A DNA stretch of 64,000 bases from an uncultured Pelagibacteraceae bacterium (GCA_902611845.1 CACMAX010000001.1:209445-273444); one strand, 5' to 3'. Positions 2,392-46,818 are shown, counted from the first letter of the stretch. The notes: a model not told the origin generated them from the sequence alone. A program made the numbers and translations.

Positions 2392-3336
2392 ATGAAGAAA
2401 CTTTTATCAATAATTTCTGCTTTTTTGATTACATTTGCTCTAAGTTTTACAGGTGCGAATGCAGATAAAAGCGGAGTTGTTAAAATCCCAACACACAATT
2501 GGTCAAGTCAATTAGTTGGAGCTGAAGTTGTTGGTGAATTGCTAAAAATGGTAGGTGAGAAAGTAGAGTATATTAATATGGACTCACAAGCAGTATACCA
2601 AGCAATGGCAGACGGTGATATTGATCTAGTTCATGAAATTTGGGAAGGTGCGTTTGGAGCATCTTATGAAAAAGCAAAAGCTGGTGGTGGAATTGAAGAA
2701 ATTCTTACTCACGATGCTGTAACTAGAGAGGACTGGTGGTATCCAAACCATGTTGAAAAACTTTGTCCTGGTCTACCAGATTGGAAAGCTCTAAATAAAT
2801 GTGCAGATCTTTTTGCAAGAGCAGACTCTGGAGGTAAGGGAGTGTTTATCGGTGGTCCTGTTGATTGGTTAAAACATGATGCTGAAAAAGTTGAGGCTCT
2901 AGGAATGAACTTCATGGTGAAAAATGCAGGTTCTGCAGATGCAATTTGGGCTGAATTAGATGCAGGTGTAGCGCAAGGAAAAGCTGTAGTTGTTTTTAAC
3001 TGGTCACCAAATTTCATCGGTGCAAAATATCCAGGTAAGTTTGTTGAGTTTCCTAAACATGATCCAGCTTGTACAAAGGATCCTTCATGGGGAATCAATA
3101 AAACTGCACTTTATGATTGTGGAAACCCAGCAAGTGGTTATTTAAAATTAGCAGTCAATGCTGATTTCAAAAAAAATCATCCTGCGGGATATAAGTTGTT
3201 GAAACAGATGAATTTTTCTGGTCCAGACATTGACAAAATGGCTAACTACAAGGACACGGATGGTTTAGAAGTATCAGCAGCTGCTCAAAAATGGTTAGAT
3301 GATCACAAATCTAAATGGAGCAATTGGATTAAATAA
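2392..3336 (+). CDS. tmoX: TMAO/betaine-type ABC transporter substrate-binding protein (TmoX-like, OpuAC family)
   Basis: Signal peptide, motifs HNWSSQ, HEIWE, REDWWYP and CPGLPDWKALN, strong SD (AGGAG), and position next to tdm. Confidence 0.85.
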   Translation: MKKLLSIISAFLITFALSFTGANADKSGVVKIPTHNWSSQLVGAEVVGELLKMVGEKVEYINMDSQAVYQAMADGDIDLVHEIWEGAFGASYEKAKAGGGIEEILTHDAVTREDWWYPNHVEKLCPGLPDWKALNKCADLFARADSGGKGVFIGGPVDWLKHDAEKVEALGMNFMVKNAGSADAIWAELDAGVAQGKAVVVFNWSPNFIGAKYPGKFVEFPKHDPACTKDPSWGINKTALYDCGNPASGYLKLAVNADFKKNHPAGYKLLKQMNFSGPDIDKMANYKDTDGLEVSAAAQKWLDDHKSKWSNWIK

Positions 3337-3352
3337 TTTTTAGTCTATTTAT

Positions 3353-3393
3353 AAACGAACCGACATAATCTTAAGTCGGTTCGTTTTTTTTTT
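3353..3393 (+). terminator. Intrinsic terminator/stabilising hairpin after tmoX
   Basis: Stem AAACGAACCGAC-(10 nt)-GTCGGTTCGTTT followed by a long T run. Confidence 0.8.
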
Positions 3394-3426
3394 ATTTTAT
3401 GTTAAGCTCTCTTAAATTTTTTTATT

Positions 3427-4455
3427 ATGAATGATCAAATCAAAATTTCATGTTCAAATATTTGGAAATTATATGGAGAAAATCCAGAAAAGTTTTTAAA
3501 AGAAAATAATAATAATCCATCAACCGAACAACTAAAATCAAATAAATATATACCTGCGGTAAGAGATGCATCTATCGATGTAAAAACTGGAGAAATATTG
3601 GTTATTATGGGATTGAGTGGATCTGGTAAGTCAACATTATTAAGATGTATGTCTAAACTTATTCAACCAACTGATGGTCAAGTTTTTTTTGAGGGTAAAG
3701 ATTTATTAAAAGCTAGCGATAAAGAGTTAATCGAAATAAGAAGACATAAAATGGGAATGGTATTTCAGCATTTTGCTTTATTACCTCACAGAACAGTTTT
3801 ACAAAATGTTGCATTTCCTTTAGAGGTGCAAGGAATAGAGCCTATTAAAAGAGAAGATAGAGCAAAAGAGGTCATTAAATTAGTTGGTCTTGAGGGTAGA
3901 GAAAAATATTATCCTAGAGAACTTTCAGGAGGTCAACAACAAAGAGTTGGACTAGCAAGGTCTTTAGCGGTTGAACCAGATGTTTGGTTTTTAGATGAAC
4001 CTTTTTCAGCTTTAGATCCATTGATTAGAAAAGAGATGCAAAACGAGTTTTTGAGACTTCAAAATATGCTTAAAAAGACAATTGTTTTTATAACCCATGA
4101 TTTTGATGAAGCTATACGATTGGCAGATAGAATAGCAATAATGTATGAAGGGTTAATAGTCCAAGTAGGCACTCCTGAAGAATTAATCACGAAACCAGCT
4201 ACTGATTATGTTGCAGAATTTACAAAAGATATTCCTAGATCTAAGTTATTAAATGCTGAAAGTGTTATGAATAATGAGGATAAAAAACTCTATGATAATA
4301 CTGTTAACTGTAAAGAAAAAATTGAAAAAATCGCATCAAAAGTTTTAAAATCCGAAGGATCTTACTCTGTTATTGATGAAAATAAAAAAGTTATTGGTTC
4401 ATTAAGCAAAAAAGAAATAATCAAAGCTTTATTTGCCGAAGATAAGAATGAATAA
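3427..4455 (+). CDS. tmoW: Quaternary-amine ABC transporter ATP-binding subunit (ProV/OpuAA family)
   Basis: Walker A GLSGSGKS, signature LSGGQQQRVG, Walker B FLDEPFSALD. Confidence 0.85.
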   Translation: MNDQIKISCSNIWKLYGENPEKFLKENNNNPSTEQLKSNKYIPAVRDASIDVKTGEILVIMGLSGSGKSTLLRCMSKLIQPTDGQVFFEGKDLLKASDKELIEIRRHKMGMVFQHFALLPHRTVLQNVAFPLEVQGIEPIKREDRAKEVIKLVGLEGREKYYPRELSGGQQQRVGLARSLAVEPDVWFLDEPFSALDPLIRKEMQNEFLRLQNMLKKTIVFITHDFDEAIRLADRIAIMYEGLIVQVGTPEELITKPATDYVAEFTKDIPRSKLLNAESVMNNEDKKLYDNTVNCKEKIEKIASKVLKSEGSYSVIDENKKVIGSLSKKEIIKALFAEDKNE

Positions 4456-6460
4456 AATTAAAACCATTTTTAAAGGAAAATTTTTATTTATTTTTGGACC
4501 ATTCTTTTTGTTATGGTTGCTTCGTTATATTGTTCCTAATTATACGATTTCATCTAAAACACCACATTGGGCTTATATACCTCCAAAAAGTTGCTTGGGA
4601 GGATGCGGATCAATAGATGGATTTATACCTTTTGTAGATTGGACAAATGCATTAATTCAATTTCTGAGAAAGTATGAAATTTTCGGTTTGTTTACTTTTA
4701 GAGATTTCACAAGAGGTATAGCGAACTACGTCGATAAATTTTTAGATTTTACAGAAGCAGTCTTGCACAAAGGTTTTCCAAGCTACGAAATAGGACCTTT
4801 GCCTTGGATATTTATAATAACTCTTACAGTGATTTTAGGTTTTTATTTGAGAGGTTGGAGATTGGCATTGTTGGGAGGAACATGTTTTGCGTACTTAATA
4901 TTATTTAGTAAACGGGGAATATGGGAACTATCAATGAAATCTTTAGCAGCTATTTCTGTCTCTGCACCTTTGGCTGCATTAATAGGATTGTGTTTGGGTA
5001 TACTTGCGGTCAAGAGAAAAAAATTTGCAAACTTTCTATGGCCAATGTTAAATATTTTACAATCTTTACCTCATTTTTCTTATTTAATTCTGGTTGTTAT
5101 ATTTGTTGGAATAGGGACTAAAGCTGGAGTTATTGCAACCGTAATATTTGCATTTCCACCAATGGCTAGATTAACTATTTTAGGATTACAAAATATATCA
5201 CAAGAAATAAAAGAAGCTGGTGTGATGGCTGGTTGCACAAAGTGGCAAATGTTATTTAAAGTTGAAATTCCGGCAGCTAGATCTCCAATTATGCTGGGAA
5301 TAAATCAAGTTATAATGCAATGTCTTGCAATGATAGTTATAGCAGCATTTATTGGACAACCTGGTTTAGGTCATGACTTGTTAATTAGATTACAAGGCTT
5401 AAGGCTAGGTGAGGCTTTTGAAATTGGTGTTGCAGTTGTTTTGATCGCAATTACACTTGATAGGTATAGTCAAGCTTTAGCATTAAAAGAACCAGAGCGA
5501 AGAGAGGGAAATTTTGTAAAGAGAAATCCATATTTGTGTGCAACTTTTTTTGCAATTATAATTTGCTCTATCTTAGTTTTTCTTTTTCCATTTTTTAATG
5601 AATATCCAAAGGAGTTAACAGTTTCAGCATCTGTATATTTAGATAATGCCATTAAATCATTTACAAGATCTTTGTTTGTACCGTTAGGAATATTTAGAGA
5701 TTGGATGTTAATATATTTTTTGATGCCTCTTAAAGCTGTATTTCAATCTATGCCATGGACTGGAGTAATTTTATTTGTCGGAGCAATTGGGTGGAAGCTT
5801 GGTAAAATGAGACTGGCATTAACAGTTATGTTATTCGTATTTTTTATAGCATCATCTGGTTATTGGGTAAGAGCAATGATTACTTTATATATGGTATTTG
5901 CATCATTAGTAATATGTGCACTTATTGGAATTCCTTTGGGGATATGGGCATCAAAGAAAGAGAGCAGAACAAAGTTAGTTTTAAATATTTGTGATATTTT
6001 TCAAACATTTCCATCATTTATTTATCTACTTCCAGCAATAATGCTATTTCAAATAAGTGATGTTTCAGCAATATTTGCAATAGTTATATATTCCTCAATA
6101 CCAATGATAAGATATACTGTTTTTGGATTAAGAAATGTTCCACAACAAATTATAGAGGCATCTATAACCTCTGGATGTACAGAAAGACAATTATTATGGA
6201 AAGTAAAAATGCCTTTAGCCTTTCCAGAAATTATACTAGGTGCAAATCAAACATTAATGTTTGCTTTATTTATGGTAATGATAGCTGGATTTATTGGAAC
6301 TGTTGATTTGTCGCAAGAAATATTTAGGGCATTGTCTTTTAGTGACGGTGGCAAAGGTTTAATAATAGGATTATGTGTTGCATTTATAGGTTTGACTGCA
6401 GATAGATTGTTAGTTGAATGGTCAAATCAAATGAAGAAAAAATTAGGATTTATCAACTAG
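4448..6460 (+). CDS. tmoV: Quaternary-amine ABC transporter permease with two fused ProW-type modules
   Basis: Two permease repeats with EAA-like loops (IKEAGVMAGCTKWQML; IIEASITSGCTERQLL). The start is placed at ATG 4448, overlapping the upstream stop. Confidence 0.82.
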   Translation: MNKIKTIFKGKFLFIFGPFFLLWLLRYIVPNYTISSKTPHWAYIPPKSCLGGCGSIDGFIPFVDWTNALIQFLRKYEIFGLFTFRDFTRGIANYVDKFLDFTEAVLHKGFPSYEIGPLPWIFIITLTVILGFYLRGWRLALLGGTCFAYLILFSKRGIWELSMKSLAAISVSAPLAALIGLCLGILAVKRKKFANFLWPMLNILQSLPHFSYLILVVIFVGIGTKAGVIATVIFAFPPMARLTILGLQNISQEIKEAGVMAGCTKWQMLFKVEIPAARSPIMLGINQVIMQCLAMIVIAAFIGQPGLGHDLLIRLQGLRLGEAFEIGVAVVLIAITLDRYSQALALKEPERREGNFVKRNPYLCATFFAIIICSILVFLFPFFNEYPKELTVSASVYLDNAIKSFTRSLFVPLGIFRDWMLIYFLMPLKAVFQSMPWTGVILFVGAIGWKLGKMRLALTVMLFVFFIASSGYWVRAMITLYMVFASLVICALIGIPLGIWASKKESRTKLVLNICDIFQTFPSFIYLLPAIMLFQISDVSAIFAIVIYSSIPMIRYTVFGLRNVPQQIIEASITSGCTERQLLWKVKMPLAFPEIILGANQTLMFALFMVMIAGFIGTVDLSQEIFRALSFSDGGKGLIIGLCVAFIGLTADRLLVEWSNQMKKKLGFIN

Positions 6461-7419
6461 TGAAAGAAATATTAATAATAGGTGGAGGGGCAATGGGATC
6501 AGCTTTTACTTTTCCATGTATTGATAATAAAAACAAAGTAATAATAACAGAGCCATATAATAAAGTTTTTATTAAAAATTTATCTTCAAATAATAAATAT
6601 CATTCAAGTTTGAAAAAAAATTTACCTAGTAAGTTAAAGTATAAAAAATATTCAACAAACTTACTAAAAAAAAAATATGATTTAGTTGTTATTGCTTTAA
6701 GTTTATCAGGAATAAAATTTATAAGTGAAGAATTCAAACAATCAAAAATCAAAAGTCCAGTTCTAATTCTTACTAAAGGCTTAAAGTATGATAGAAAAAA
6801 GCAAAAAATTTATACTATTTCTGAAGATATAAAAAAAAATAATAAAAATATAAACATATCTGTCTTAAAAGGACCTTGTTTAGCAAAAGAACTTTCTAAT
6901 AAAAAACAAACAAGTGTTGTTGTTGCTAATAAAAATATAAAAACTGCAAAGAATATATGCAAAATGATTTCTACAAAATATTACGTAACAGAGACTTCAA
7001 AAGATATTATTGGAATAGAAATTTGTTCAGCAATAAAAAATATTTATTCTATGATAATTGGAGCTGGAGATAGTTTAAATATGTCATCAAGTTTATTCAA
7101 AAAATCTATTAATGAGATGATATATATTACTAAATATTTTAAAGGAAAAATTGAAACCGCTCTTGGATTAGCTGGAGTTGGAGATCTATACGTCAGTGCT
7201 GCAGGAGGTAGAAATAGTAAAATGGGAGGGTACCTGGGGCAAGGCTATACATTTAATAATGCTAAAAGAAAATTTATGCCAAATGAAACTGTAGAGGGAG
7301 AGCAACTTGCAAGAGAAATTGCTCCATTTATACTAAAAAAAATACAACAAAAAAAAATCCCTTTGATGACAAAATTAATTAAATCTATAATTAACAATAA
7401 AAAATTAATATTAAATTAA
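6460..7419 (+). CDS. gpsA: NAD(P)H-dependent glycerol-3-phosphate dehydrogenase family protein (divergent GpsA)
   Basis: Motifs IIGGGAMGS, TKGL, GPCLAKE, AIKNIY, GVGDL, GRNSKMG and VEG. The GTG start at 6460 overlaps the tmoV stop. Confidence 0.72.
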   Translation: MKEILIIGGGAMGSAFTFPCIDNKNKVIITEPYNKVFIKNLSSNNKYHSSLKKNLPSKLKYKKYSTNLLKKKYDLVVIALSLSGIKFISEEFKQSKIKSPVLILTKGLKYDRKKQKIYTISEDIKKNNKNINISVLKGPCLAKELSNKKQTSVVVANKNIKTAKNICKMISTKYYVTETSKDIIGIEICSAIKNIYSMIIGAGDSLNMSSSLFKKSINEMIYITKYFKGKIETALGLAGVGDLYVSAAGGRNSKMGGYLGQGYTFNNAKRKFMPNETVEGEQLAREIAPFILKKIQQKKIPLMTKLIKSIINNKKLILN

Positions 7420-7421
7420 AA

Positions 7422-8507
7422 ATGGCGAGTATTAAAATAGATAAAGTAAATAAGTATTTTGGAAGTACACATGTTATCAAAGATGTTTCTCTTGATATAA
7501 AGAGCGAGTCTTTTACTGTTCTAGTAGGACCAAGTGGTTGTGGTAAATCTACAATTTTAAGAATGATTGCTGGTTTAGAAGAAATTAATTCTGGCACAAT
7601 ATCTATTGATGATAAAGTTGTTAACGATTTACCACCTAAAGAAAGAAATATTGCAATGGTATTTCAATCTTATGCCCTTTACCCGCATATGACAGTATTT
7701 GACAATATGGCTTTTGGTTTAAAGATTGAAAAAAAATCGAAAGAAGAAATAGAGCAAAGAGTAATGGAAGCTGCTAAAATTCTACAAATTGAGGAGTATC
7801 TTGAGAGAAAACCCAAACAATTATCTGGAGGACAACGTCAAAGAGTAGCCATAGGTAGAGCTATTACAAGAAAACCGAAAGTTTTTTTATTCGATGAACC
7901 ATTATCTAACTTAGATGCGGCTTTAAGAGTACAAATGAGAGTAGAGTTGGCAAAACTACATGATCAACTTAATGCAACAATGATTTACGTAACTCATGAT
8001 CAGACTGAAGCCATGACACTCGCAAATGATATTGTTGTATTGGATCAAGGTATAGTTTCACAAAAGGGATCACCAATGAATTTATATAATAACCCAGATA
8101 ATTTATTTGTTGGAGGTTTTATCGGGTCTCCAAAAATGAATTTTATAGATAGTAAAGTTTTAAGTAAAAGCTCAAAGAGTTCTGAAGTAGATATAATGGG
8201 GACTGGAAAGTTAAATGTACCAAAAATTTCTGAAAATACTCAAGAAGGGGATAGTATAAAAATTGGTATAAGACCAGAGCACTTGATATTAAATGCAAAA
8301 ACAGACTCATTATGGGAAAGTAAAGTGTTCGTTGTAGAAAAATTAGGGTCAGGAACATATTTATATTTAGAGAAAGAGGGAGACCCTCTTGTTGTACAAA
8401 CTGATGGGGACACGAATATTAAAGTAGGTGATACTGTTAAAATAGGTTTTGATCCATTTAGATGCCATTTATTTGATAATAAAGGTATTTCTTTTAAAAA
8501 TTCCTAA
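7422..8507 (+). CDS. Carbohydrate ABC transporter ATP-binding protein (MalK/UgpC family)
   Basis: GPSGCGKS, VFQSYALYPHM, LSGGQRQRVAIGRA, DEPLSNLDA and a C-terminal TOBE-like region. Confidence 0.93.
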   Translation: MASIKIDKVNKYFGSTHVIKDVSLDIKSESFTVLVGPSGCGKSTILRMIAGLEEINSGTISIDDKVVNDLPPKERNIAMVFQSYALYPHMTVFDNMAFGLKIEKKSKEEIEQRVMEAAKILQIEEYLERKPKQLSGGQRQRVAIGRAITRKPKVFLFDEPLSNLDAALRVQMRVELAKLHDQLNATMIYVTHDQTEAMTLANDIVVLDQGIVSQKGSPMNLYNNPDNLFVGGFIGSPKMNFIDSKVLSKSSKSSEVDIMGTGKLNVPKISENTQEGDSIKIGIRPEHLILNAKTDSLWESKVFVVEKLGSGTYLYLEKEGDPLVVQTDGDTNIKVGDTVKIGFDPFRCHLFDNKGISFKNS

Positions 8508-8520
8508 ATCAATCTCAGGT

Positions 8521-8542
8521 AGTATTGTATAATATACATACT
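8521..8542. promoter_or_regulatory. Candidate operator upstream of the sugar-binding protein gene
   Basis: Perfect 6-1-6 inverted repeat TGTATA-A-TATACA (8526-8538), flanked by AGTA/TACT. Confidence 0.45.
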
Positions 8543-8619
8543 TGTTATTCCTCTTTTAAATGTTCATTATGTGATAATTTTTAAATAACTTTAAAAAACA
8601 CGAAAAAAGAGGGGAATAT

Positions 8620-9948
8620 ATGTTTAAAAATATATTAATAACAATCTCTGCAATAGCTTTTGTTTTTAATTCAATTGCATTTGCAGATATCAAATTCTGG
8701 ACGACAGAAACTCAACCAGCAAGAATGGCTAAACAAGAAGAGATGGCTAAAGCTTTTGAAGCTAAAACTGGAATTGGAGTTGAAGTTATTCCGATTGATG
8801 AAAAAGATTTAGGAACAAGAGCTACTGCAGCAGCAGCAGCGGGAGATCTTCCTGATGTAATTTATCATACACTTCAATATGTATTACCATGGGCTGAAGC
8901 TGGAATTTTAGATGTTGATGCAAATAATGATGTCGTTAATTCACTTGGAAAGAAAACTTTTGCTCCTGGTGCTTTAAAGATGGCTAAAAAAGGTGGCAAA
9001 ATTGCTGCTGTGCCAGTAGATGGCTGGACTCAAATGGTCGTTTACAGAAAAGATTTATTTGCAGCTGCTGGTTTAGAACCACCAACGACTTATGCAAATA
9101 TAGAGAAAGCAATTGATGCTTTATCTAGCAATGAGATGTTTGGATTTGTTGCGGCAACTAAAACTGACGAAAACTTTATGAGTCAGGTTTTGGAACATGT
9201 TTTTCTTGCAAATGGCGTAAACATAGTAAAAAAAGGTGGAACAAAAAAACAAGGAAGAGCTTTAAAAAATTCTTTACAGTTTTATAAAAAATTAGCTAAG
9301 GCTAGCCCTCCAGGAGAACTTTATTGGAAACAATCAAGAGAACTTTATTTCGCTGGTAAAACTCCAATGATAATATGGTCACCGTTTATTATGGATGAAT
9401 TAGCTGGTTTAAGAGACTCAGCTCCACCAACAATTAATAGTGATCCTACATCACCTGAATTGGCATCTAAAACTGGTTTTATAACTAATTTTAGTGGACC
9501 AAATAATGTAAAAGGTGCAGCTTGGGCAGATGTTAGATACTTTGGTATAACTGCAGATGCAGATACTGATGAAGCTAAGCAGTTTATTCTTTATTCAATG
9601 GATGAAGGATACACAAGCACTTTATCTATAGCACCAGAAGGTAAGTTCCCTGTAAGAAGAGGTAATGCAAGTGATCCAAATGCATTTACAACAGCTTGGA
9701 GTAAACTGCCTGTTGGAGTTGATAGAAAAGCTCCTTTAACAGATCTATATTCTGCAGATGTAATAAATAATATTGTTGCTGGTTTAGATACTGCTAACAG
9801 ATGGGGAGTAAAAGAAGGTGAACTATCTAGAGCATCTAAAATTATTAACAATAAGTTTATAAATAGAATCACTAGACAATATATTGACGATCAATTGACG
9901 CTAGATGAAGCAGTAACTGAAATTAACACTGTGCTAGCTAGCTTCTAA
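8620..9948 (+). CDS. Carbohydrate ABC transporter solute-binding protein (family 1 type)
   Basis: Signal peptide (SIAFA-D), FEAKTGIGVEV, GDLPDVI, VPVDGWTQMVVYRKDLF, and SD GAGGGG. Confidence 0.9.
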   Translation: MFKNILITISAIAFVFNSIAFADIKFWTTETQPARMAKQEEMAKAFEAKTGIGVEVIPIDEKDLGTRATAAAAAGDLPDVIYHTLQYVLPWAEAGILDVDANNDVVNSLGKKTFAPGALKMAKKGGKIAAVPVDGWTQMVVYRKDLFAAAGLEPPTTYANIEKAIDALSSNEMFGFVAATKTDENFMSQVLEHVFLANGVNIVKKGGTKKQGRALKNSLQFYKKLAKASPPGELYWKQSRELYFAGKTPMIIWSPFIMDELAGLRDSAPPTINSDPTSPELASKTGFITNFSGPNNVKGAAWADVRYFGITADADTDEAKQFILYSMDEGYTSTLSIAPEGKFPVRRGNASDPNAFTTAWSKLPVGVDRKAPLTDLYSADVINNIVAGLDTANRWGVKEGELSRASKIINNKFINRITRQYIDDQLTLDEAVTEINTVLASF

Positions 9949-9962
9949 TAATTTAAATTATT

Positions 9963-9998
9963 AAAAAAGCGGGTAATATTAATTATCCGCTTTTTTTT
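9963..9998 (+). terminator. Hairpin + T run between the SBP and permease genes
   Basis: AAAAAAGCGGGTAAT-ATTA-ATTATCCGCTTTTTTTT, ending immediately at the ATG at 9999. Confidence 0.75.
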
Positions 9999-11258
9999 AT
10001 GAGTTCAAAACTTGCAAAAATTGAAAAAAGAACAGCTTATTTATTAATATTACCATCGGTTCTTTTAGTATTTTCTATAATTTTATTTCCAATATTTTCC
10101 AACATTTGGATCAGCTTTAAAAATGTAGAGCTTAAAGATTTGAGAATTCCTGAACCAAGAGCAAAAAAATTAGTAAAATCAATTAAGGATAATCCAAATC
10201 AAATAAAAGTAATTTATAAATTAAGAAATAGTTCTCTTACACAAGAAATTACTAATGTAAAATTTAAAGATAAATATCCAGATGATATCGAACCAATAGA
10301 TTTAGACAATAAATGTCAATTTAAATCAAATTTACTTAAATGCGAACTAGGTAATTGGCCAAAAAAATATCGAGAAAATTTAGAAATAGTTTTTCAAAAT
10401 ACTAATAATCAAGAAATTTCTAAGAAGGAACTAAAATCCTTTAAACCTAAACTCTCAGGTAAGTCACAAAATATATTATTAACCTATGAATTTACGTTAA
10501 ATAATTTCAAAAAAGTAATCAAAGATAAAGCTTTCATAGATCTATTATCAACAACTTTTTATTATACTTTTTTTGGAACCATAGGTGCAATAGTTTTTGG
10601 AATTTTGGCAGCACAAATGGTAAATCAAAAATTTTTTGGAAGAACATTTATGAGAAGTGTTCTTTTATTTCCTTATGTTGCACCAGTTGTTGCTCTTGCT
10701 TATACCTGGGAACTTTTACTTGATCCAACAAGTGGAACTTTAAATAATTTATTAATTAATTATCAAATTATTGATGGACCAATAAATTTACTAGGACAAA
10801 AATATGTAACTTTAAATATACTTGGTTTTGATTTTAAGTTGAGGCTAGCATTAACAACAGTAATTATTTTTGAAATTTGGAGATATTTTCCTTTAGCATT
10901 TTTATTTATTCTTGCTCGTCTTCAAGCAGTTCCAAAAGAACTTTATGAAGCAGCTGATGTTGATGGCGCAAATCCTATTCAAAAATTTCTTAACATAACT
11001 TTACCCCAGATATTAGCAGTGATTTCAATTCTATTTATGATTAGATTTATTTGGAATTTTAATAAATTTGAAGACATCTTCTTACTCACTGGCGGAGCAT
11101 CAGGAACAAGAACATTACCAATCAATGTATATCAACAAGGTTTTTCAATCGGGGATATTGGTATGGGTTCTGCAGTTTCTATTGTAATTGTAGTATTTCT
11201 GTTAATTTTTATGTTTATCTATTTTAAACTTTTAGGAAAAAGAGCGGATGAAAATTAA
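9999..11258 (+). CDS. Carbohydrate ABC permease (MalF-like) with a large soluble insert
   Basis: EAA loop LYEAADVDGA, motifs RSVLLFPY and WNFNKFEDIFLLTGG, and a ~110-aa hydrophilic insert after TM1. Confidence 0.9.
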   Translation: MSSKLAKIEKRTAYLLILPSVLLVFSIILFPIFSNIWISFKNVELKDLRIPEPRAKKLVKSIKDNPNQIKVIYKLRNSSLTQEITNVKFKDKYPDDIEPIDLDNKCQFKSNLLKCELGNWPKKYRENLEIVFQNTNNQEISKKELKSFKPKLSGKSQNILLTYEFTLNNFKKVIKDKAFIDLLSTTFYYTFFGTIGAIVFGILAAQMVNQKFFGRTFMRSVLLFPYVAPVVALAYTWELLLDPTSGTLNNLLINYQIIDGPINLLGQKYVTLNILGFDFKLRLALTTVIIFEIWRYFPLAFLFILARLQAVPKELYEAADVDGANPIQKFLNITLPQILAVISILFMIRFIWNFNKFEDIFLLTGGASGTRTLPINVYQQGFSIGDIGMGSAVSIVIVVFLLIFMFIYFKLLGKRADEN

Positions 11259-12441
11259 AAATATATTAACTTATTGTGTTATCTCATCATTATTTTTGTT
11301 TTCATTAATTTGTATTTGGAAAATCTTAGTTACATTACAAGGAATTGAATTAATAAATTTTAACTTTAATAAATTATTTATCTTTGGAATAATTCTTTGT
11401 GTAATAAATCTTCTTGTTGGAAAAAAATTCAATTTAAATATCAAAATAACTTTACTTGCTCTTTTATTTTCTATTTTTGATTATTTCATCTCAATAAATT
11501 TACCTATTTGGTACAGTTTTGGTATATTCTTAATCTCACTGTTTTTCTTTAATACTATAAAAAACTACGACAAAAAATTTTTGTCAAAAAATCACTCGTC
11601 TCAAAAATTATTCTTTAATTTTTTAACACTGTTTGGGATTACACTTTTCTCTTTTGTAATTCTTTTCCCTTTTTACATGATGTTAGTTACAAGCTTTAAA
11701 ACTCAAGCATTATTATTATTAAACCCATTAGACTTTAGTATTAACTTTGCACAAGGATTGCCAGAATTATTCAAATCTTATTTTATAGTATTCAAAGATT
11801 ATAATTTTGGAAGATATATGCTTACTAGCACAATAGTCTCTTTAGGCACAGTCATTATAACACTAATATTTGCAATTCCGGCTGCTTACGCAGTTGCAAG
11901 ACTTAAATTCTTTGGAAAAAATTTTTTATCAACATCAATATTGATAATTTATTTGTTTCCAGCGATAGTTTTGGTGATACCTTTATATACAATTTTTAGT
12001 CAACTTGGTTTGAGAAATTCTATTGAAGGTTTGTTAATAGTTTATACAGCTACGACTTTACCAGTAGCAATTTATATGCTGCAAGGTTACTTTAAAAGCA
12101 TACCAAAAGAACTTGAAGAAGCTGGAATTATAGATGGTCAAAATTGGCTTGGTATAATTTTTAAAATTATACTTCCGCTAAGTTTACCTGCAATATCATC
12201 AGTAGCTTTGTATGTATTTATGATAGCTTGGAATGAATTTTTATTTTCATTAATGTTTTTAGACAGACCAAATACATTCACATTATCAAGAGCTATTCAG
12301 TTTCTGAATGTTGGAGCTGAAACACCCAGACAATATTTGATGGCAGGATCTGTAGTAGTAACTTTGCCTATTTTAATAATTTTTGTTTATTTTGAAAAAT
12401 ATTTAGTAAGTGGTCTTACTGCAGGAAGTGTTAAAGGATAA
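11248..12441 (+). CDS. Carbohydrate ABC permease (MalG-like) with an extra N-terminal hydrophobic extension
   Basis: PAAYAVARLKF, EAA loop LEEAGIIDG, AWNEFLF, SGLTAGSVKG. Confidence 0.9.
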   Translation: MKIKNILTYCVISSLFLFSLICIWKILVTLQGIELINFNFNKLFIFGIILCVINLLVGKKFNLNIKITLLALLFSIFDYFISINLPIWYSFGIFLISLFFFNTIKNYDKKFLSKNHSSQKLFFNFLTLFGITLFSFVILFPFYMMLVTSFKTQALLLLNPLDFSINFAQGLPELFKSYFIVFKDYNFGRYMLTSTIVSLGTVIITLIFAIPAAYAVARLKFFGKNFLSTSILIIYLFPAIVLVIPLYTIFSQLGLRNSIEGLLIVYTATTLPVAIYMLQGYFKSIPKELEEAGIIDGQNWLGIIFKIILPLSLPAISSVALYVFMIAWNEFLFSLMFLDRPNTFTLSRAIQFLNVGAETPRQYLMAGSVVVTLPILIIFVYFEKYLVSGLTAGSVKG

Positions 12442-13709
12442 TGCCAAATAGACTTGAAGAAGCAAAAAAAGTTTTATTAGGTAACAGAAAAAATGGTTAT
12501 ACACTACCCACTAATAACAAATTATATCCTGCTCAATGGAATTGGGACTCAGCTTTTATAGCGCTCGGTTATTCTTACTTTAATTTAGATTTTTCAATTA
12601 CAGAAATTGAAACATTACTTGATGGCCAGTGGGATGATGGAATGGTGCCACATATTCTTTTTCATGAAAAAGATACATCTTATTTTCCAAATCATACTAC
12701 TTGGAAATGCGGAAAAAAAATACCATCATCAGGAATTACTCAGCCACCTGTACTAGCTATTATACTAAAGAAAATTATAGAAAATAATCAATTAAATGAT
12801 GATCAAAATTCAAGAATTTTAAAAATTTTAATAAAAATAAAAAAATACCATGAATGGTTTATAAAATTCAGAGATCCAAATAAAACTGGATTAGTATCTA
12901 TTTTACATCCATGGGAAAGCGGTTATGACAATTCACCAATTTGGGACGAACCTATGAGTAATATTTTAGTTGATAAAGAACTAAATTATCAAAGAAGAGA
13001 TTTAGAGGTATCTAATTCAGACGAGAGACCTCTTAAAAAAGATTATGACAGATATGTTACTATCAGGGATCAATTTAGAGATGTTAATTATGACCCTAAT
13101 AAATTATATGAACTATCAATATTTAACGTAGTTGACGTTGGGTTTAATTCACTTTTTTTAAAAGCAAATAAAGATTTAGTTAATTTGTTGAAAAAATTTA
13201 AATTAAATTATGATGAATTAGATTTCTTTATTTCAAAAAGTGAAAGTGAAATAATTAAATTATATAATTATGATAGTGATGAATTTGTATCAAAAGATTT
13301 AAATACTAATAAAGATATTCTAATTCCTTCGATTACTAACTACTTTACTTTAATTGCTGATTTAAAAAATGATAAATTAAATAAAAAAATAATAAATAAT
13401 TTAAAAAACTATAATTTAAATGAGAAATATATTTTTTCTACAATAAAATCTGATCATCAAACTTTCGAAGAGAAAAGATATTGGCGAGGTCCAGTTTGGA
13501 TAAATTGCAATTGGTTAATTTATGAAGGGACAAAAAACAAAGATAAAGAGTATTCAATTAAAATTAAAAATGAAACAATATCTTTAATTGAAAATAAAGG
13601 TTTTCACGAATACTATAGTTGTAATGATGGTTCAGTTATGGGGGCAAACAATTTTTCTTGGAGTGCTGCCTTATACTTAGATCTAGTGATGCAAAAAAAT
13701 GAAAATTAA
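12441..13709 (+). CDS. GH63/MGH1-like glycoside hydrolase (glucosylglycerate/mannosylglycerate hydrolase-like)
   Basis: Motifs YPAQWNWDSAF, GMVPHI, GITQPP, HPWESGYDNSP, YWRGPVW, GFHEYY and FSWSAA. Confidence 0.82.
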   Translation: MPNRLEEAKKVLLGNRKNGYTLPTNNKLYPAQWNWDSAFIALGYSYFNLDFSITEIETLLDGQWDDGMVPHILFHEKDTSYFPNHTTWKCGKKIPSSGITQPPVLAIILKKIIENNQLNDDQNSRILKILIKIKKYHEWFIKFRDPNKTGLVSILHPWESGYDNSPIWDEPMSNILVDKELNYQRRDLEVSNSDERPLKKDYDRYVTIRDQFRDVNYDPNKLYELSIFNVVDVGFNSLFLKANKDLVNLLKKFKLNYDELDFFISKSESEIIKLYNYDSDEFVSKDLNTNKDILIPSITNYFTLIADLKNDKLNKKIINNLKNYNLNEKYIFSTIKSDHQTFEEKRYWRGPVWINCNWLIYEGTKNKDKEYSIKIKNETISLIENKGFHEYYSCNDGSVMGANNFSWSAALYLDLVMQKNEN

Positions 13710-14856
13710 TTGGAATTATCCTACTACAATTTGGGTTGGAGAGAACAGAATTCAAGATTTAAGCATAGCATGTAAAAATTTGAAAATTAATAAACCATTA
13801 TTTGTCACAGATAAGGATTTAATTAATCTAAAAATGGTTCAAGATATAATTAAAGATTTAAAAAAAACCCATAATCATCTTCAAGTTTTTTCAAATTTTT
13901 CAGGTAATCCTGTAGGTGAGAATGTGGAAGAGGGAGTAGGGGAGTTTAAGAAATTAGGTTGTGATGGAGTTATTGCATTTGGTGGTGGCAGCGGTCTTGA
14001 TGTAGGTAAAGCTATTGCTTTCATGTCAGGACAGTCAAGACCAATATGGGATTTTGAAGATATAGGTGATTATTGGAAAAGAGCAGATGAAACTAACATT
14101 GCACCTATTATTGCTGTACCCACTACAGCGGGGACAGGATCAGAAACTGGAAGAGCCTCAGCTATAATTAATAAACAAACAGGTATAAAAAAAATTATTT
14201 TCCACCCAAAATTTTTACCTTCAATAGTAATTTTAGATCCTAATTTAACTTTAGATCTTTCTCCAAGATTGACAGCAGCGACAGGCATGGATGCTTTGGC
14301 GCACAATTTAGAAGCTTTTTGTGCACTTGGATTTCATCCGATGGCTGATGGAATTGCGATTGAGGGAATGAAGTTAATTAAAAACTCGTTAATTAAAGCA
14401 GTTAAAAACGGTAAAGATTTAAATGCTAGAGCAGAATTATTAGCTTCAGCTAGTATGGGTTCTACTGCTTTTCAAAAAGGGCTTGGCGCTATTCATTCTT
14501 TAAGTCACCCTATTAATGCGCAATTTAATGTTCACCACGGTTTATCAAATGCTATCTTTATGCCTTATGTATTAACTTTTAACAAAGAAATGATTGAAAA
14601 AAGGATAATTTCTATATGTGATTATCTCGAACTGAATAAAAGTTTTGATAGTTTTTTACAATGGATTTTAGAACTAAGAAAAGAATTAAATATACCTCAT
14701 AAATTATCAGAAATTATTGATGTAAATAAAATAAATTTAGAGCAGTTATCAGTTATGGCATTAGAAGATCCTTCAACTTCTACCAATCCAAGGACAATGA
14801 GCAAGGATGACATGAAAGCACTTTATGAACATAGCATTTCAGGTAAATTATTTTAA
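13699..14856 (+). CDS. Iron-containing alcohol dehydrogenase family protein
   Basis: GGGSGLDVGK, PTTAGTGSE, GMDALAHNLE, GAIHSLSH and HHGLSNA. Confidence 0.92.
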   Translation: MKINWNYPTTIWVGENRIQDLSIACKNLKINKPLFVTDKDLINLKMVQDIIKDLKKTHNHLQVFSNFSGNPVGENVEEGVGEFKKLGCDGVIAFGGGSGLDVGKAIAFMSGQSRPIWDFEDIGDYWKRADETNIAPIIAVPTTAGTGSETGRASAIINKQTGIKKIIFHPKFLPSIVILDPNLTLDLSPRLTAATGMDALAHNLEAFCALGFHPMADGIAIEGMKLIKNSLIKAVKNGKDLNARAELLASASMGSTAFQKGLGAIHSLSHPINAQFNVHHGLSNAIFMPYVLTFNKEMIEKRIISICDYLELNKSFDSFLQWILELRKELNIPHKLSEIIDVNKINLEQLSVMALEDPSTSTNPRTMSKDDMKALYEHSISGKLF

Positions 14857-17435: not shown

Positions 17436-18692
17436 ATGCAGAAATATTCAGTATTTAGTCTAATCAAAAATGCTTTCTCCAATCACCAAAATTGGGAAGT
17501 TGCTTGGAAAGATCCAACTCCAAAAAGTGAATATGATGTAGTCATCATTGGAGGAGGAGGACATGGTCTTGCTACTGCATATTATTTAGCAAAAGAACAT
17601 AACATTAGAAATGTAGCTATCATTGAGAAAGGCTGGATTGGTGGTGGAAATGTTGGTCGAAATACAACGATCATAAGATCAAATTTTATGTACGATGCTA
17701 ATGCAAGATTTAATGAATTTGGAATGGATTTATGGAGAAACTTAAGTCAAGAACTGAACTTTAATGTGATGTTTTCTCCAAGGGGAATATTAAACTTAGC
17801 CCACTCAGATGCTCAAATGAACGCCTACGCTCGAAGAGGAAACTCTATGAGATTAAATGGAATAGATGCAAAATTATTAGATAGAGAAGAAGTTAAAAAA
17901 TTAATTCCAATGGCTGACTTTAGTGATGAAGTACGTTTCCCAATTTTTGGAGGCTTAATGCAACCAAGTGCTGGTACCGCAAGACATGATGCAGTTGCTT
18001 GGGGTTATGCACGTCAAGCAGATGATATGGGAGTAGATATTATACAACATTGTGAGGTCACTGGTTTTGATGTTGTTAATGGAAAGATAAAAGGAATTAG
18101 GACTTCAAGAGGAGATATTAAAGCAAAAAAAGTTGGATTATGTGTTGCAGGTAGCACAAATATATTAGCTGAAAAATTAAATATGACACTGCCAATAGAA
18201 ACTCATGTACTGCAAGCTTGTGTTTCAGAACCTGTAAAACCATTATTAGACGGAGTAGTAACTTTTGGTGCAGGCCACTTTTATATAAGTCAATCAGATA
18301 AAGGTGAGATGGTAATGGGTGGTGATCTTGATGGATATAATAGTTATGCTCAAAGAGGTAACTTGCCAACTATACAACATGTATTGACAGGCGGCTTAGC
18401 TTTGTTTCCATTTTTAAGTAGATTAAAAATGTTAAGGACATGGGGAGGGATCATGGATATGTCAATGGATGGTTCTCCAATAATTGATAAAACTCATATT
18501 GAAGGTTTATATTTAAACTGCGGATGGTGTTATGGAGGTTTTAAATCAACTCCTGTCTCAGGTTGGACATTTGCTCATACAATTGCGCAAGATCAAGTTC
18601 ATGAATTAAATTCAGAATTAAGATTAAATAGATTTTCTACAGGCCATCTTTTAGATGAAAAAGGTTTAGGAACTAAAACCTGGATTGGTTAA
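17436..18692 (+). CDS. soxB: Sarcosine oxidase beta-family subunit (N-methylglutamate dehydrogenase MgdA-like)
   Basis: GGGGHGLATAYYLAK, GGGNVGRNTTIIRSN, RHDAVAWGYA and GWCYGGFK. The C-terminus DEKGLG differs from the canonical SoxB GAAAVAH. Confidence 0.88.
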   Translation: MQKYSVFSLIKNAFSNHQNWEVAWKDPTPKSEYDVVIIGGGGHGLATAYYLAKEHNIRNVAIIEKGWIGGGNVGRNTTIIRSNFMYDANARFNEFGMDLWRNLSQELNFNVMFSPRGILNLAHSDAQMNAYARRGNSMRLNGIDAKLLDREEVKKLIPMADFSDEVRFPIFGGLMQPSAGTARHDAVAWGYARQADDMGVDIIQHCEVTGFDVVNGKIKGIRTSRGDIKAKKVGLCVAGSTNILAEKLNMTLPIETHVLQACVSEPVKPLLDGVVTFGAGHFYISQSDKGEMVMGGDLDGYNSYAQRGNLPTIQHVLTGGLALFPFLSRLKMLRTWGGIMDMSMDGSPIIDKTHIEGLYLNCGWCYGGFKSTPVSGWTFAHTIAQDQVHELNSELRLNRFSTGHLLDEKGLGTKTWIG

Positions 18693-18695
18693 AAA

Positions 18696-18965
18696 ATGTT
18701 ATACATCAAATGTCCTTATTGTGGTTTAAGAGCACAAAAAGAATTTTCATATGGAGGTGATGCAACTGTAAAAAGACCTAATATAAATGAAGAAGTATCA
18801 AGTGAGGAGTGGGATAATTTTGTTTATATGAGAAAAAGTCCAAGAGGGAAACATGTAGAGTTATGGCAACATATAGCAGGATGTAGACAATGGATTAAAG
18901 TGCAAAGAGATACCGCTACACATGAAATTTTCCAAACAGCAAAAGTCACAGAAGAAATAAGATGA
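18696..18965 (+). CDS. soxD: Sarcosine oxidase delta-family subunit
   Basis: CPYCG, EFSYGG, WQHIAGCRQW Zn motif. Confidence 0.93.
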   Translation: MLYIKCPYCGLRAQKEFSYGGDATVKRPNINEEVSSEEWDNFVYMRKSPRGKHVELWQHIAGCRQWIKVQRDTATHEIFQTAKVTEEIR

Positions 18966-21958: not shown

Positions 21959-22533
21959 AAAATGTTTCTGCACTAGAAAATATTCATAAACATGGATTGT
22001 TTGGCAATCACGATAGTAAAGATGAGCTAATAAATATTAGAGAAATCAAAGATGTTTTGATTTATCAAATTGTTAAATATAAAAAATCTTCAATTAGTAT
22101 TGATAAAATAAAAATAGATAATTTAAATTTACCTGAGACACTTTTGGTTTCTTCAAATAAAAATACAAGAATTTTATGGATGGGACCTGATAATTGGTTA
22201 GTCTTTTCAAAAAATAAAGAAATAGAAAAATCTATTTTAGAGAACATAAGTCATGATGATTTTGCATTAACAGATCTATCTCATTCAAGAACAATACTGG
22301 AATTGGAAGGTTCTTTAGTAGATGAAGTATTGAAAAAAGGTTGTCCGTTAAATTTAGATGGTCTTGATGAAGGAAAATGTTCTAATTCTGCTTTTCATGC
22401 AATTACAATAACTATTGATTTTATAAGTTCAAATCCAAGAAAAGTAAGAATATTTGCTTTAAGAAGTTTTGGTGAATCTCTTTATCATTCAATAACTGAT
22501 GCTTGTTTAGAATTTGGCTATAAAGCTGAATAA
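21955..22533 (+). CDS. soxG: Sarcosine oxidase gamma-family subunit
   Basis: WMGPDNWL, DLSHSR, KGCPLNL, RSFGESL; ATGA overlap with soxA. Confidence 0.88.
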   Translation: MKNVSALENIHKHGLFGNHDSKDELINIREIKDVLIYQIVKYKKSSISIDKIKIDNLNLPETLLVSSNKNTRILWMGPDNWLVFSKNKEIEKSILENISHDDFALTDLSHSRTILELEGSLVDEVLKKGCPLNLDGLDEGKCSNSAFHAITITIDFISSNPRKVRIFALRSFGESLYHSITDACLEFGYKAE

Positions 22534-27386: not shown

Positions 27387-28355
27387 ATGAATTATCGAAT
27401 TGATAATCTTCAGTATTGTAAATGGTCTAGAGAAATCTTTGAAATAAATAATAAAGCTGGATTAAATGCGGTTCACGTAACGTTAGTTTATCATGAGGAC
27501 TATGATGAATTACAACAAAGAATACAAGAGTGGAATAAACATTTTGAAGAAAATAAAGATCTTATATTTCTAGGCAATAACTACAATGATATTACAAAAG
27601 CAAAAGAAGAAAATAAAACTGCAATTTTTTTTGGATTTCAAAATTGTTCTCCAATTGAAGATGACATAAGTCTTATAGAAAAAGTACACTCACAAGGTTG
27701 TCGATTTATGCAATTAACTTATAACAACCAATCATTATTAGCCACCGGATGTTATGAAAAAAATGATAGCGGAGTTACTAATTTTGGAAAAGAGGCTATT
27801 AAAGAAATGAATAGAGTAGGTATCGTTGTTGACATGTCTCATTCAGCAGAGAAAAGTACACTTGATGCAATTGAAATTAGCCAAAAACCTATTGCGATCA
27901 CTCATGCAAATCCAACTTTTTGGTTTGAAGCTAAAAGAAATAAATCTACAGAATTATTAAAAGTTTTATCCGATAGTGGAGGAATGTTAGGGTTATCATT
28001 GTATGCTCATCATTTAAAAGATGGAACGAATTGTAAAATAGAAAGTTTTTGTGAAATGGTTGCAAGAACAGTTGAAATTATGGGTATTAATAATGTTGGA
28101 ATAGGATCAGACTTATGTTTGAACCAACCAGACAGTGTAGTTGAGTGGATGAGAAATGGAACTTGGTCAAAATCAAAAAATTTTGGTGAAGGCAGTAAAG
28201 ATAAACCTGGTTTTCCAAAACAACCAGATTGGTTTTTGGATGCAAGAGGATTTAATAATTTAAGTACAGAACTAAAAAATAAAGGTTTTCAGGAAGAAGA
28301 GATAAATAAGATACTTGGCAATAACTGGTTTAATTTTTATAAAGGAATTAATTAA
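27387..28355 (+). CDS. Membrane dipeptidase (M19) family amidohydrolase with an altered metal site
   Basis: QLTYN, VDMSH, ITHAN and GIGSD are present, but IDNLQY and FGFQN replace the usual DGHND and EG motifs. Confidence 0.8.
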   Translation: MNYRIDNLQYCKWSREIFEINNKAGLNAVHVTLVYHEDYDELQQRIQEWNKHFEENKDLIFLGNNYNDITKAKEENKTAIFFGFQNCSPIEDDISLIEKVHSQGCRFMQLTYNNQSLLATGCYEKNDSGVTNFGKEAIKEMNRVGIVVDMSHSAEKSTLDAIEISQKPIAITHANPTFWFEAKRNKSTELLKVLSDSGGMLGLSLYAHHLKDGTNCKIESFCEMVARTVEIMGINNVGIGSDLCLNQPDSVVEWMRNGTWSKSKNFGEGSKDKPGFPKQPDWFLDARGFNNLSTELKNKGFQEEEINKILGNNWFNFYKGIN

Positions 28356-46794: not shown

Positions 46795-46818
46795 CAAATA
46801 CTGTAAGAAATTATCATT

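Follow-up and report, generated by a model that had tools for sequence, protein, structure and literature searches.

Six open reading frames on the plus strand occupy positions 6418-13709 of the window, the 64,000-nucleotide stretch of DNA from an uncultured Pelagibacteraceae bacterium that was analyzed here. They encode a GpsA-like protein, an ABC-type ATPase, a substrate-binding protein (SBP), two permeases and a GH63-like enzyme, and Pfam and NCBIfam assignments are concordant for all six. The gene for the MalK/UgpC-type ATPase (7422-8507), assigned by Pfam domains ABC_tran, OB_MalK and TOBE_2 and by synteny, is followed by genes for a periplasmic SBP of 442 aa with a Sec signal peptide (8620-9948; SBP_bac_1/8), a MalF/UgpA/YcjO-type permease of 419 aa (9999-11258), a MalG/YcjP-type permease of 397 aa (11248-12441), both with BPD_transp_1 domains, and a cytoplasmic GH63 hydrolase of the MgH/GgH subgroup (12441-13709; 422 aa; PF22422). 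These five genes constitute the core unit. The original prediction of a contiguous, overlapping run is correct with regard to gene content but not with regard to complete overlap: the MalG/YcjP-type permease gene shares 11 nt with the preceding permease gene and 1 nt with the hydrolase gene, whereas the SBP gene is set off by gaps of 112 nt before and 50 nt after it. The predicted combination of an importer with a cytoplasmic MgH/GgH-type hydrolase is borne out by Pfam/NCBIfam domains and sequence motifs.

The unit is flanked by two genes that we do not assign to it. The NAD(P)-dependent glycerol-3-phosphate (G3P) dehydrogenase-like protein is encoded at 6418-7419 (plus strand), and the true start is probably near 6460 because database homologues have a length of 319 aa. 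Both NAD_Gly3P_dh domains (N and C) are present, the protein stays below every NCBIfam GpsA cut-off (best score 141.7 bits vs a cut-off of 257) and its nearest solved relative is the archaeal G3P dehydrogenase 1TXG from A. fulgidus. In this lineage just 2 nt separate the gene from the ATPase gene that follows. It had been counted as a member of the module, a view that we abandon: it adjoins the module in a single SAR11 sublineage and is found next to it neither in the third SAR11 group nor in the orthologous modules of other bacteria. Downstream, a gene matching iron-containing alcohol dehydrogenases (Fe-ADH; 13699-14856, plus strand) belongs to the SAR11 C1-oxidation region, with amidotransferase and fhs genes following; the Fe-ADH/SAR11_1286/fhs region has been described in HTCC1062 (PMC3160333). 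In a second SAR11 group a flavin monooxygenase gene on the opposite strand is inserted between the hydrolase gene and Fe-ADH, and in the third group Fe-ADH is absent at the module. Both genes are lineage-specific neighbours outside the unit.

The transporter is a CUT1-type ABC importer: its SBP_bac_1/8 protein is secreted, both permeases belong to BPD_transp_1 and the MalK-type ATPase carries a C-terminal OB/TOBE domain. The ATPase scores almost equally with the NCBIfam models for MalK (488 bits) and UgpC (474 bits); its identity drops to 52-55% with the counterpart in the third SAR11 group and to about 50% with the ATPases of modules in Ruegeria, Maritalea and Thalassospira. The signal peptide of the SBP reads MFKNILITISAIAFVFNSIAFA, with cleavage before D. 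Its best PDB matches are YcjN proteins (7V09, 1e-25; 8VQK, 9e-20), the identity amounting to 23% over 335 residues with the C-terminal quarter unaligned. According to hydropathy analysis, TM1 and TM2 of the MalF/UgpA/YcjO-type permease are separated by a hydrophilic insert of some 150 residues; this permease is 34% identical to E. coli YcjO and shares 41-45% identity over its full length with permeases of 411-414 aa from the Ruegeria, Maritalea and Thalassospira modules. By the same analysis, the MalG/YcjP-type permease is extended at its N-terminus by about 120 residues with some four additional hydrophobic segments, and the MalG model covers its residues 124-397 only; this protein is 37% identical to YcjP and 54-64% identical to orthologues of about 400 aa.

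Transcription of the unit is strikingly uneven. In seven seawater metatranscriptomes, contig depth is far greater at the SBP gene than anywhere else in a 15-kb stretch, although depths of assembled contigs reflect expression poorly. The RNA/DNA ratio of the SBP gene in seawater metatranscriptomes is about 100-2000 times as high as the ratios of the permease and hydrolase genes; in the one seawater sample sequenced for both RNA and DNA it amounts to 0.84, compared with 0.83 for proX, with the permease and GH genes at 0.0004-0.01. In seawater, transcription of the SBP gene is about on a par with that of glycine-betaine proX. The region upstream of the SBP gene (8508-8619), over which RNA depth climbs from the ATPase gene towards the SBP gene, has TATAAT at 8528-8533 with TG in front of it. 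It also has a strong ribosome-binding site (GAGGGGA), and this alone is conserved across SAR11 loci; we regard the promoter in this region as putative. An intrinsic terminator or attenuator hairpin (9963-9998, plus strand; 15-bp stem plus T-run, -16.8 kcal/mol) resides in the 50-nt gap behind the SBP gene and is kept, together with its T-run, in 75 of 75 SAR11 loci. At the hairpin RNA depth drops at least 100-fold and DNA depth about 2-4-fold, and a conserved terminator at this position fits the RNA drop towards the permease and hydrolase genes. Transcription of the SBP gene appears to start in its own upstream region and to be mostly stopped at the hairpin, which would leave far more message for the SBP than for the permeases and the hydrolase.

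The hydrolase aligns with the complete PF22422 profile (MGH1-like_GH; residues 29-408, profile positions 1-356 of 356) with 270.9 bits at a cut-off of 27. It matches most closely the MgH TTHA0978 from Thermus (E = 1.5e-92) and then the GgH from M. hassiacum (MhGgH; E = 2e-55), with identities of 38 and 28%, respectively. Since it remains below the NCBIfam GgH equivalog NF047898 (301.2 bits vs a cut-off of 550), naming it GgH by equivalence is unwarranted and, judged by these comparisons, it resembles the MgH type more closely. As had been noted, the translation contains the motifs YPAQWNWD (29-36), HPWESGYDNSP (156-166), YWRGPVW (347-353) and EYY (390-392) and the N-terminus, MPNRLEEAKKVLL..., is devoid of a signal peptide. 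Catalytic residues D163 and E390 (Asp182 and Glu419 in MhGgH) are invariant in all 78 SAR11 copies, and so are Y29, W33, Y81, R196 and Y347, equivalent to Tyr36, Trp40, Tyr88, Arg216 and Tyr375 that contact glycerate in solved MhGgH (PMC6608630). Altogether, 15 MhGgH substrate contacts (Tyr36, Trp40, Trp42, Asp43, His78, Tyr88, Gln115, Trp177, Gly180, Arg216, Tyr222, Tyr375, Trp376, Trp381 and Trp436 in MhGgH numbering) are invariant in 78/78 copies, although overall identity drops to 63%.

In 80 of 80 SAR11 species loci the order ATPase-SBP-permease-permease-GH63 is kept as far as the contigs reach, the module residing in three different genomic contexts; all 71 loci with sufficient contig have the ATPase gene immediately before the SBP gene. 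HIMB2250, HIMB1444 and HIMB1456 are examples of SAR11 isolates that possess the module. dN/dS values of 0.01-0.25 across the five genes (0.05-0.10 for the SBP and 0.10-0.21 for the hydrolase gene) demonstrate purifying selection. Neither glycerate kinase nor mannose isomerase nor hexokinase was detected in the window or in the regions flanking the 80 SAR11 loci, including by a Pfam survey. Other marine Alphaproteobacteria share the transporter, with equally oversized permeases and SBPs 60-68% identical to that of SAR11 in the orthologous modules of Ruegeria, Maritalea, Thalassospira, Limimaricola and Paroceanicella. A gene for glycerate 2-kinase adjoins the orthologous GH63 module downstream in Maritalea and upstream in Limimaricola. 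In Paroceanicella, the SAR11-type transporter occurs without GH63 and is instead accompanied by a GH13 enzyme with 43% full-length identity to the E. coli glucosylglycerate phosphorylase YcjM and with PYELN and TETN motifs; on the basis of this identity and the two motifs, the latter taken from a secondary source, it is probably a glucosylglycerate rather than a glucosylglycerol phosphorylase. Marine GH63 loci with different transporters encode D-lyxose/D-mannose isomerase and glycerate kinase in Loktanella and glycerate kinase and an AGE-family isomerase in Catenovulum.

We found no account of the module in the literature searched, in agreement with the original prediction of an undescribed system, but parts of it resemble known ones. 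Among the closest are the MgHs from Thermus thermophilus (TTHA0978; PDB 2Z07, 4WVA-C), Rubrobacter radiotolerans and Selaginella. The Thermus enzyme is a GH63 MGH1-like protein that aligns over the full length, has the same catalytic Asp/Glu and pocket, lacks a signal peptide and, like the SAR11 hydrolase, carries Phe at the position of MhGgH Gln434; MgHs hydrolyze mannosylglycerate (MG) and glucosylglycerate (GG) alike and the Thermus enzyme, in contrast to the role proposed here, breaks down the cell's own osmolyte (PMC5381378). The Rubrobacter gene does not form part of an ABC importer locus, unlike that of SAR11, where the overlap with the permease gene suggests translational coupling. MhGgH (PDB 5OHC and others) has all 17 catalytic and substrate-contact residues, including the glycerate set, in common with the SAR11 hydrolase, differs by wild-type Gln434 and functions in recovery from nitrogen starvation, not in uptake. 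In the E. coli ycjM-ycjNOP(V) cluster, the gene for a GG-cleaving enzyme adjoins putative ABC importer genes with ycjN directly following ycjM; among solved proteins, those of the YcjN type are most closely related to the SBP, and Paroceanicella couples a SAR11-type transporter with a YcjM-like enzyme. However, the SBPs are just 23% identical, the Ycj permeases are of normal size and cleavage is by GH13_18 phosphorolysis rather than GH63 hydrolysis. We take Synechocystis GgtABCD plus GghA (Slr1670) to follow the same logic, in which a heteroside osmolyte is taken up by an ABC importer and split by a cytoplasmic hydrolase, but GghA, set apart by its published family, is GHL5-type and unrelated to GH63, and its aglycone is glycerol, not glycerate. 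E. coli MngA/MngB is a dedicated route for MG uptake and cleavage to glycerate that employs PTS uptake with phosphorylation and a GH38 alpha-mannosidase; none of its components is known to be homologous to the SAR11 module.

Pocket conservation together with glycerate 2-kinase, YcjM-like and mannose isomerase partners points at hexosyl-glycerates (GG and/or MG) as the substrate class, making the glycerate glycosides the best-supported part of the predicted substrate range. Glucosylglycerol had been proposed as well. It, or another glycerol glycoside such as floridoside, would be cleaved to hexose and glycerol, with the GpsA-like enzyme feeding glycerol into metabolism, a reading in line with the vicinity of that gene to the ATPase gene, with glycerol-type ABC transporters near the Ruegeria and Maritalea modules (with glpK in the latter), with DAK-family kinases near those of Paroceanicella and Ruegeria, with the presence of glucosylglycerol phosphorylases within GH13_18 and with the use of glucosylglycerol as a compatible solute by cyanobacteria. 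We nevertheless consider it quite improbable. The known glucosylglycerol hydrolase GghA is not a GH63 enzyme, the activity of MhGgH towards glucosylglycerol is strongly reduced, with the Tyr36 contact lost in the case of this analogue (PMC6608630), the glycerate-contacting arginine (MhGgH Arg216) and tyrosines are invariant in SAR11, four independent loci have glycerate 2-kinase rather than glycerol kinase as their immediate neighbour, no glycerol kinase adjoins the SAR11 module and the GpsA-like gene is missing from the modules of the third SAR11 group and all other taxa.

Other alpha-glycosides, be it kojibiose, nigerose, trehalose, sucrose, a larger glycerate glycoside such as mannosylglucosylglycerate or another hydroxy-acid glycoside, appear unlikely. 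Homologues of the hydrolase are automatically annotated as 'trehalase family glycosidase' or 'neutral trehalase', the protein falls below the GgH equivalog cut-off, kojibiose phosphorylase is also encoded in the YcjN cluster and a Streptomyces relative of the SBP adjoins GH63-like and debranching-like genes without glycerate kinase. On the other hand, similarity to YgjK-type glucosidase is limited to about 75 C-terminal residues, the entire MgH/GgH pocket is kept, the linkage with glycerate kinase recurs, and GG is the sole substrate efficiently hydrolyzed by GgH among a tested set including glucosylglycerol, trehalose and sucrose, with trehalose, sucrose and isomaltose not being hydrolyzed (PMC5381378). 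Least probable in our opinion is that the hydrolase mainly recycles GG made by SAR11 itself, as in mycobacteria after nitrogen starvation, with the transporter serving re-uptake of leaked solute or another purpose. While MhGgH and Thermus MgH act on internal pools, hydrolase transcripts are very scarce in seawater and GG synthesis genes have been reported for offshore Pelagibacteraceae genera (PMC12636525), that report's claim is not traceable in its supplements, the window and flanks contain no synthesis genes, the hydrolase gene is coupled to permease genes in all SAR11 loci and four other alphaproteobacterial genera and the SBP is secreted and highly transcribed.

We infer ligand and enzyme activity from sequence and, on this basis, the five-gene module probably serves the uptake and cleavage of hexosyl-glycerate solutes, i.e. 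2-O-alpha-glucosylglycerate, MG or both. The secreted SBP, for which GG and/or MG is the predicted ligand, would catch the solute in the periplasm for import by the permease pair together with the MalK-type ATPase, and the cytoplasmic GH63 enzyme would release glucose or mannose and D-glycerate by inverting hydrolysis involving Asp and Glu, as in MgH and GgH. The solutes may originate from picocyanobacteria in the case of GG or from algae in the case of MG.

Six forward-strand open reading frames occupy positions 6418-13709 of the window, which has a G+C content of about 30% and is most closely related to Pelagibacteraceae (SAR11) genomes from single cells and isolates. According to Pfam and NCBIfam they encode a glycerol-3-phosphate-dehydrogenase-like protein (GpsA-like, 6418-7419), a MalK/UgpC-type ATPase (7422-8507), an SBP_bac_1/8 solute-binding protein (SBP, 8620-9948) with a Sec signal peptide in its translation, two BPD_transp_1 permeases (9999-11258 and 11248-12441) and a hydrolase of 422 residues (12441-13709) that is a full-length match to Pfam MGH1-like_GH (271 bits). 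These families agree exactly with the six assignments of the original prediction, and the hydrolase motifs quoted there were found in the translation, which lacks a signal peptide. The genes had also been described as a contiguous, overlapping run; all are present on the plus strand as listed, but they do not overlap throughout, as a genuine intergenic gap lies on either side of the SBP gene.

A search of species-representative genomes with the hydrolase yielded 383 confirmed loci, which puts the module in at least 383 species-level genomes. Gene order was examined in the best 80 of these 383 by mapping each window protein onto them. All 80 stem from Pelagibacteraceae except for one MAG labelled only as Alphaproteobacteria. 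The order ATPase-SBP-permease-permease-GH63 is kept in 80/80 loci as far as the contigs reach, while three types of surroundings occur. The window belongs to a group with the GpsA-like gene upstream of the module and an iron-containing alcohol dehydrogenase gene (Fe-ADH, 13699-14856) downstream. In a second SAR11 group, the hydrolase and Fe-ADH genes are separated by an oppositely oriented flavin monooxygenase gene. In one such locus, L009, it encodes a 444-residue flavin-containing monooxygenase (11270-12604, minus strand) that, judged by eye, is probably the trimethylamine monooxygenase Tmm. In the third group, which includes isolates HIMB2250, HIMB1444 and HIMB1456, the module has SnoaL-like genes on one side and a histidinol-dehydrogenase-like gene on the other, and both the GpsA-like gene and Fe-ADH are absent. 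Fe-ADH, an amidotransferase and fhs make up the published methanol/C1-oxidation region of SAR11, and in strain HTCC1062 the fhs/Fe-ADH region runs on into ssdH and an SDR gene and not into the module (PMC3160333). The synteny of the three groups together with the published C1 context of Fe-ADH thus delimits a unit of five genes and speaks against Fe-ADH as a glycerol or glycerate dehydrogenase of the module.

The GpsA-like gene, originally counted as a component of the system, is not part of this unit, as it accompanies the module in a single SAR11 sublineage only. A homologue search with the protein returned only copies that are at least 89% identical. Its nearest solved relative is the glycerol-3-phosphate dehydrogenase from Archaeoglobus (1TXG), and it scores under every curated GpsA cut-off. 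As listed, the reading frame shares 43 nt (6418-6460) with the 3' end of the permease gene before it; given that database homologues comprise 319 residues, the start probably resides about 14 codons downstream, by the upstream stop codon.

All five module genes are under purifying selection (dN/dS 0.01-0.25). When the window lineage is compared with the second SAR11 group (L009 and L004), dS is 1.25 for the hydrolase gene (12441-13709) and 0.17-0.36 for the four transporter genes and Fe-ADH, with dN/dS staying near 0.1. Such a mosaic would fit an allele replacement or a recombination event bounded by the junction of permease and hydrolase genes. Between SAR11 groups (L017-type loci versus L043-L080), the ATPases are just 52-55% identical and the SBPs 84-88%, and in other Alphaproteobacteria the ATPase gene follows the hydrolase gene and does not precede the SBP gene. 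It seems that the ATPase gene was exchanged or moved independently.

The closest solved structure to the hydrolase is the mannosylglycerate (MG) hydrolase TTHA0978 from Thermus thermophilus (E = 1.5e-92), followed by the glucosylglycerate (GG) hydrolase from Mycolicibacterium hassiacum (E = 2e-55). With YgjK-type glucosidases, similarity is confined to about 75 C-terminal residues. Functional residues were taken from the structural study on GG hydrolase (GgH; PMC6608630), and 78 SAR11 copies were aligned with both solved enzymes. Although these copies diverge by up to 37% overall, both catalytic residues and all 15 of the 15 substrate-contact residues checked, including the five that hold the glycerate moiety, are invariant in 78/78 copies. 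The position of Gln434 in wild-type GgH is taken by Phe in both the SAR11 and the Thermus enzymes, which places the SAR11 hydrolase with the MG hydrolase (MgH) type. The NCBIfam equivalog cut-off for GgH is missed (301 versus 550 bits), and we therefore assign the protein to the MgH/GgH subgroup without naming it GgH. MgHs hydrolyze MG and GG alike. Of the compounds tested with GgH, among them trehalose, sucrose and glucosylglycerol, GG was the sole one to be cleaved efficiently (PMC5381378).

Among solved structures, the SBP is closest to 7V09 and 8VQK, the YcjN proteins of Enterobacter and Escherichia coli (PMC11543891). Similarity to the E. coli system is modest (SBP 23%, permeases 34-37%). 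In E. coli K-12 (locus L081, 4217-8933), ycjM, annotated and cited as glucosylglycerate phosphorylase, is situated directly upstream of ycjN-ycjO-ycjP. A published ligand screen with YcjN found nothing, GG being absent from the panel (PMC11543891), and the SAR11-type loci suggest GG as the missing ligand. An AlphaFold2 model of the SBP, built on a 22-sequence alignment of close homologues, had a mean pLDDT of 44.8, too low to be used.

Much closer relatives of the SBP (60-68% identity) are encoded on annotated plasmids or chromids of five marine Alphaproteobacteria, i.e., Ruegeria conchae, Maritalea myrionectae, Thalassospira marina, Limimaricola variabilis and Paroceanicella profunda. The first four share the arrangement LacI-SBP-permease-permease-GH63-ATPase, and both of their permeases are unusually long (about 400-434 residues), as in SAR11. 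The two SAR11 permeases (9999-12441) exceed the usual length of the family by about 120-130 residues, one through some 150 hydrophilic residues inserted behind TM1 and the other through approximately four additional N-terminal hydrophobic segments. Both extensions are common to the Ruegeria, Thalassospira and Maritalea orthologues and absent from YcjO/P and Rhizobium-type permeases. In Maritalea, a gene for a MOFRL-type glycerate 2-kinase is located directly downstream of the module, and in Limimaricola a gene of this MOFRL type resides directly upstream and adjoins a mannose-isomerase-like gene of the AGE family. Paroceanicella has the same transporter without GH63; here, the neighbor is a 566-residue GH13 enzyme, 43% identical to YcjM over its full length, in which the motifs PYELN and TETN, as described for glucosylglycerate phosphorylases, are present. 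A different transporter is found in Loktanella salsilacus, where SBP-permease-permease-ATPase-GH63 is followed by genes for a D-lyxose/D-mannose isomerase and a glycerate kinase. Marinovum algicola features the same arrangement minus the kinase, and Catenovulum adriaticum, isolated from an alga, has genes for a glycerate kinase, a symporter and a TonB receptor beside GH63 and an AGE-family isomerase.

The occurrence of glycerate kinase next to four independent loci and the substitution of a GG phosphorylase for the hydrolase point to hexosyl-glycerates, which we consider the likely substrate class. GG is supported by the phosphorylase case and MG by the isomerase cases, and the enzyme type takes both. 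The original interpretation is supported in part, namely as to the coupling of importer and hydrolase and the glycerate glycosides as likely substrates. The same does not apply to glucosylglycerol, which had been proposed alongside. Glycerol-related genes do occur near some modules, but GghA, the hydrolase known to act on glucosylglycerol, is from a different family (PMC5002435) and the activity of GgH on glucosylglycerol is highly reduced (PMC6608630), so that this compound is a substrate of low probability. The module could also serve internal recycling of GG made by the cells themselves, as offshore SAR11 genera have been reported to carry genes for GG synthesis (PMC12636525). The SAR11 genes behind this report were not found in the text or supplements of that paper, and recycling therefore stays a minor rival to uptake of external hexosyl-glycerates. 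Regarding the fate of the products, tblastn with the Maritalea enzyme detected no glycerate kinase in the window or the 80 SAR11 loci, Pfam matches for most of the larger reading frames elsewhere in the window included neither a glycerate kinase nor a hexose kinase, and neither mannose isomerase nor hexokinase nor glycerate kinase was found in the window or the flanks of the SAR11 loci.

The 50-nt gap 3' of the SBP gene contains a hairpin with a 15-bp stem and a T-run behind it (-16.8 kcal/mol), and an equivalent hairpin follows the SBP gene in 75/75 SAR11 loci. The only Rfam hit within 6000-14500, an L20_leader on the terminator hairpin, is sub-threshold (30.5 versus 58.7 bits) and was treated as chance. 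In seven seawater metatranscriptomes, contig depth reaches thousands over the SBP gene and drops almost to zero across the genes for the permeases and the hydrolase. Raw depth put SBP RNA at 10-25 times that of proX, the gene for the glycine-betaine binding protein; this estimate was dropped after a DNA control in which the module recruited far more contigs than proX. As metagenome depth over the conserved module exceeds that over proX, raw RNA depth overstates expression, and we used RNA/DNA ratios instead, calculated from assembler contig depths rather than read counts for one sample with both RNA and DNA runs. In this single sample, the ratio is 0.84 for the SBP gene and 0.83 for proX, 0.05 for the ATPase gene, about 0.001-0.01 for the permease genes and 0.0004 for the hydrolase gene. 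By these assembler depths, SBP message per gene copy is thus about that of the glycine-betaine binding protein and about 100-2000 times that of the rest of the module.

The module is set in a neighborhood of osmolyte and C1 catabolism (2392-6460, 17436-22533, 42659-48438 and 56595-59033), comprising genes for a glycine-betaine ABC transporter, sarcosine oxidase subunits, ETF alpha and beta, ETF-QO, fhs and two DAO+GCV_T dehydrogenases of the dimethylglycine/sarcosine type. At 33653-35832, an FGE-sulfatase/DinB_2 (EgtB-like) gene adjoins a Methyltransf_33 gene (EgtD-like, histidine-specific SAM methyltransferase; 328 bits), and another methyltransferase and a Rieske oxygenase follow. EgtB/EgtD pairs make hercynine and ergothioneine. 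The 450-residue protein encoded at 39281-40633 is a full-length match (693 bits) to the 56-kDa selenium-binding protein family, to which methanethiol oxidase belongs. Downstream of an M19 dipeptidase gene lies a 550-residue reading frame (28355-30007) that Pfam leaves unassigned at E values up to 1e-4, and next to it a gene for a DUF3726 protein (30016-30624).

A CUT1-type ABC importer and a GH63 hydrolase of the MgH/GgH type are already familiar; new are the predicted substrate of the importer, the spread across SAR11, the very high oceanic transcript level of the SBP and the oversized permeases. Full-text literature searches retrieved no description of the system in SAR11 or its Roseobacter relatives and no paper that gives the SBP a ligand. 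When SAR11 binding proteins were studied systematically, two SBPs of HTCC1062 resisted expression and stayed uncharacterized (PMC11485210). Comparative genomics has narrowed the ligand to one small compound class. Hexosyl-glycerates are accumulated at high concentration by picocyanobacteria and algae, and GG is a nitrogen-free osmolyte of marine picocyanobacteria. It is conceivable, albeit rather doubtful, that the SBP is a very high-affinity GG receptor and GG a major overlooked carbon currency passing from Prochlorococcus and Synechococcus to SAR11. If so, an SBP transcript level equal to that of proX would mark GG as a major carbon flow between these organisms, and the glycerate half would feed C3 needs, meeting those for pyruvate and perhaps for serine/glycine. 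SAR11 is the most abundant heterotroph of the surface ocean, and the cargo of its few transporters largely sets which dissolved organic carbon it consumes. With cultured carriers at hand and 60-68% identical orthologues in easily grown Roseobacter relatives, a specific cross-feeding link becomes directly testable.
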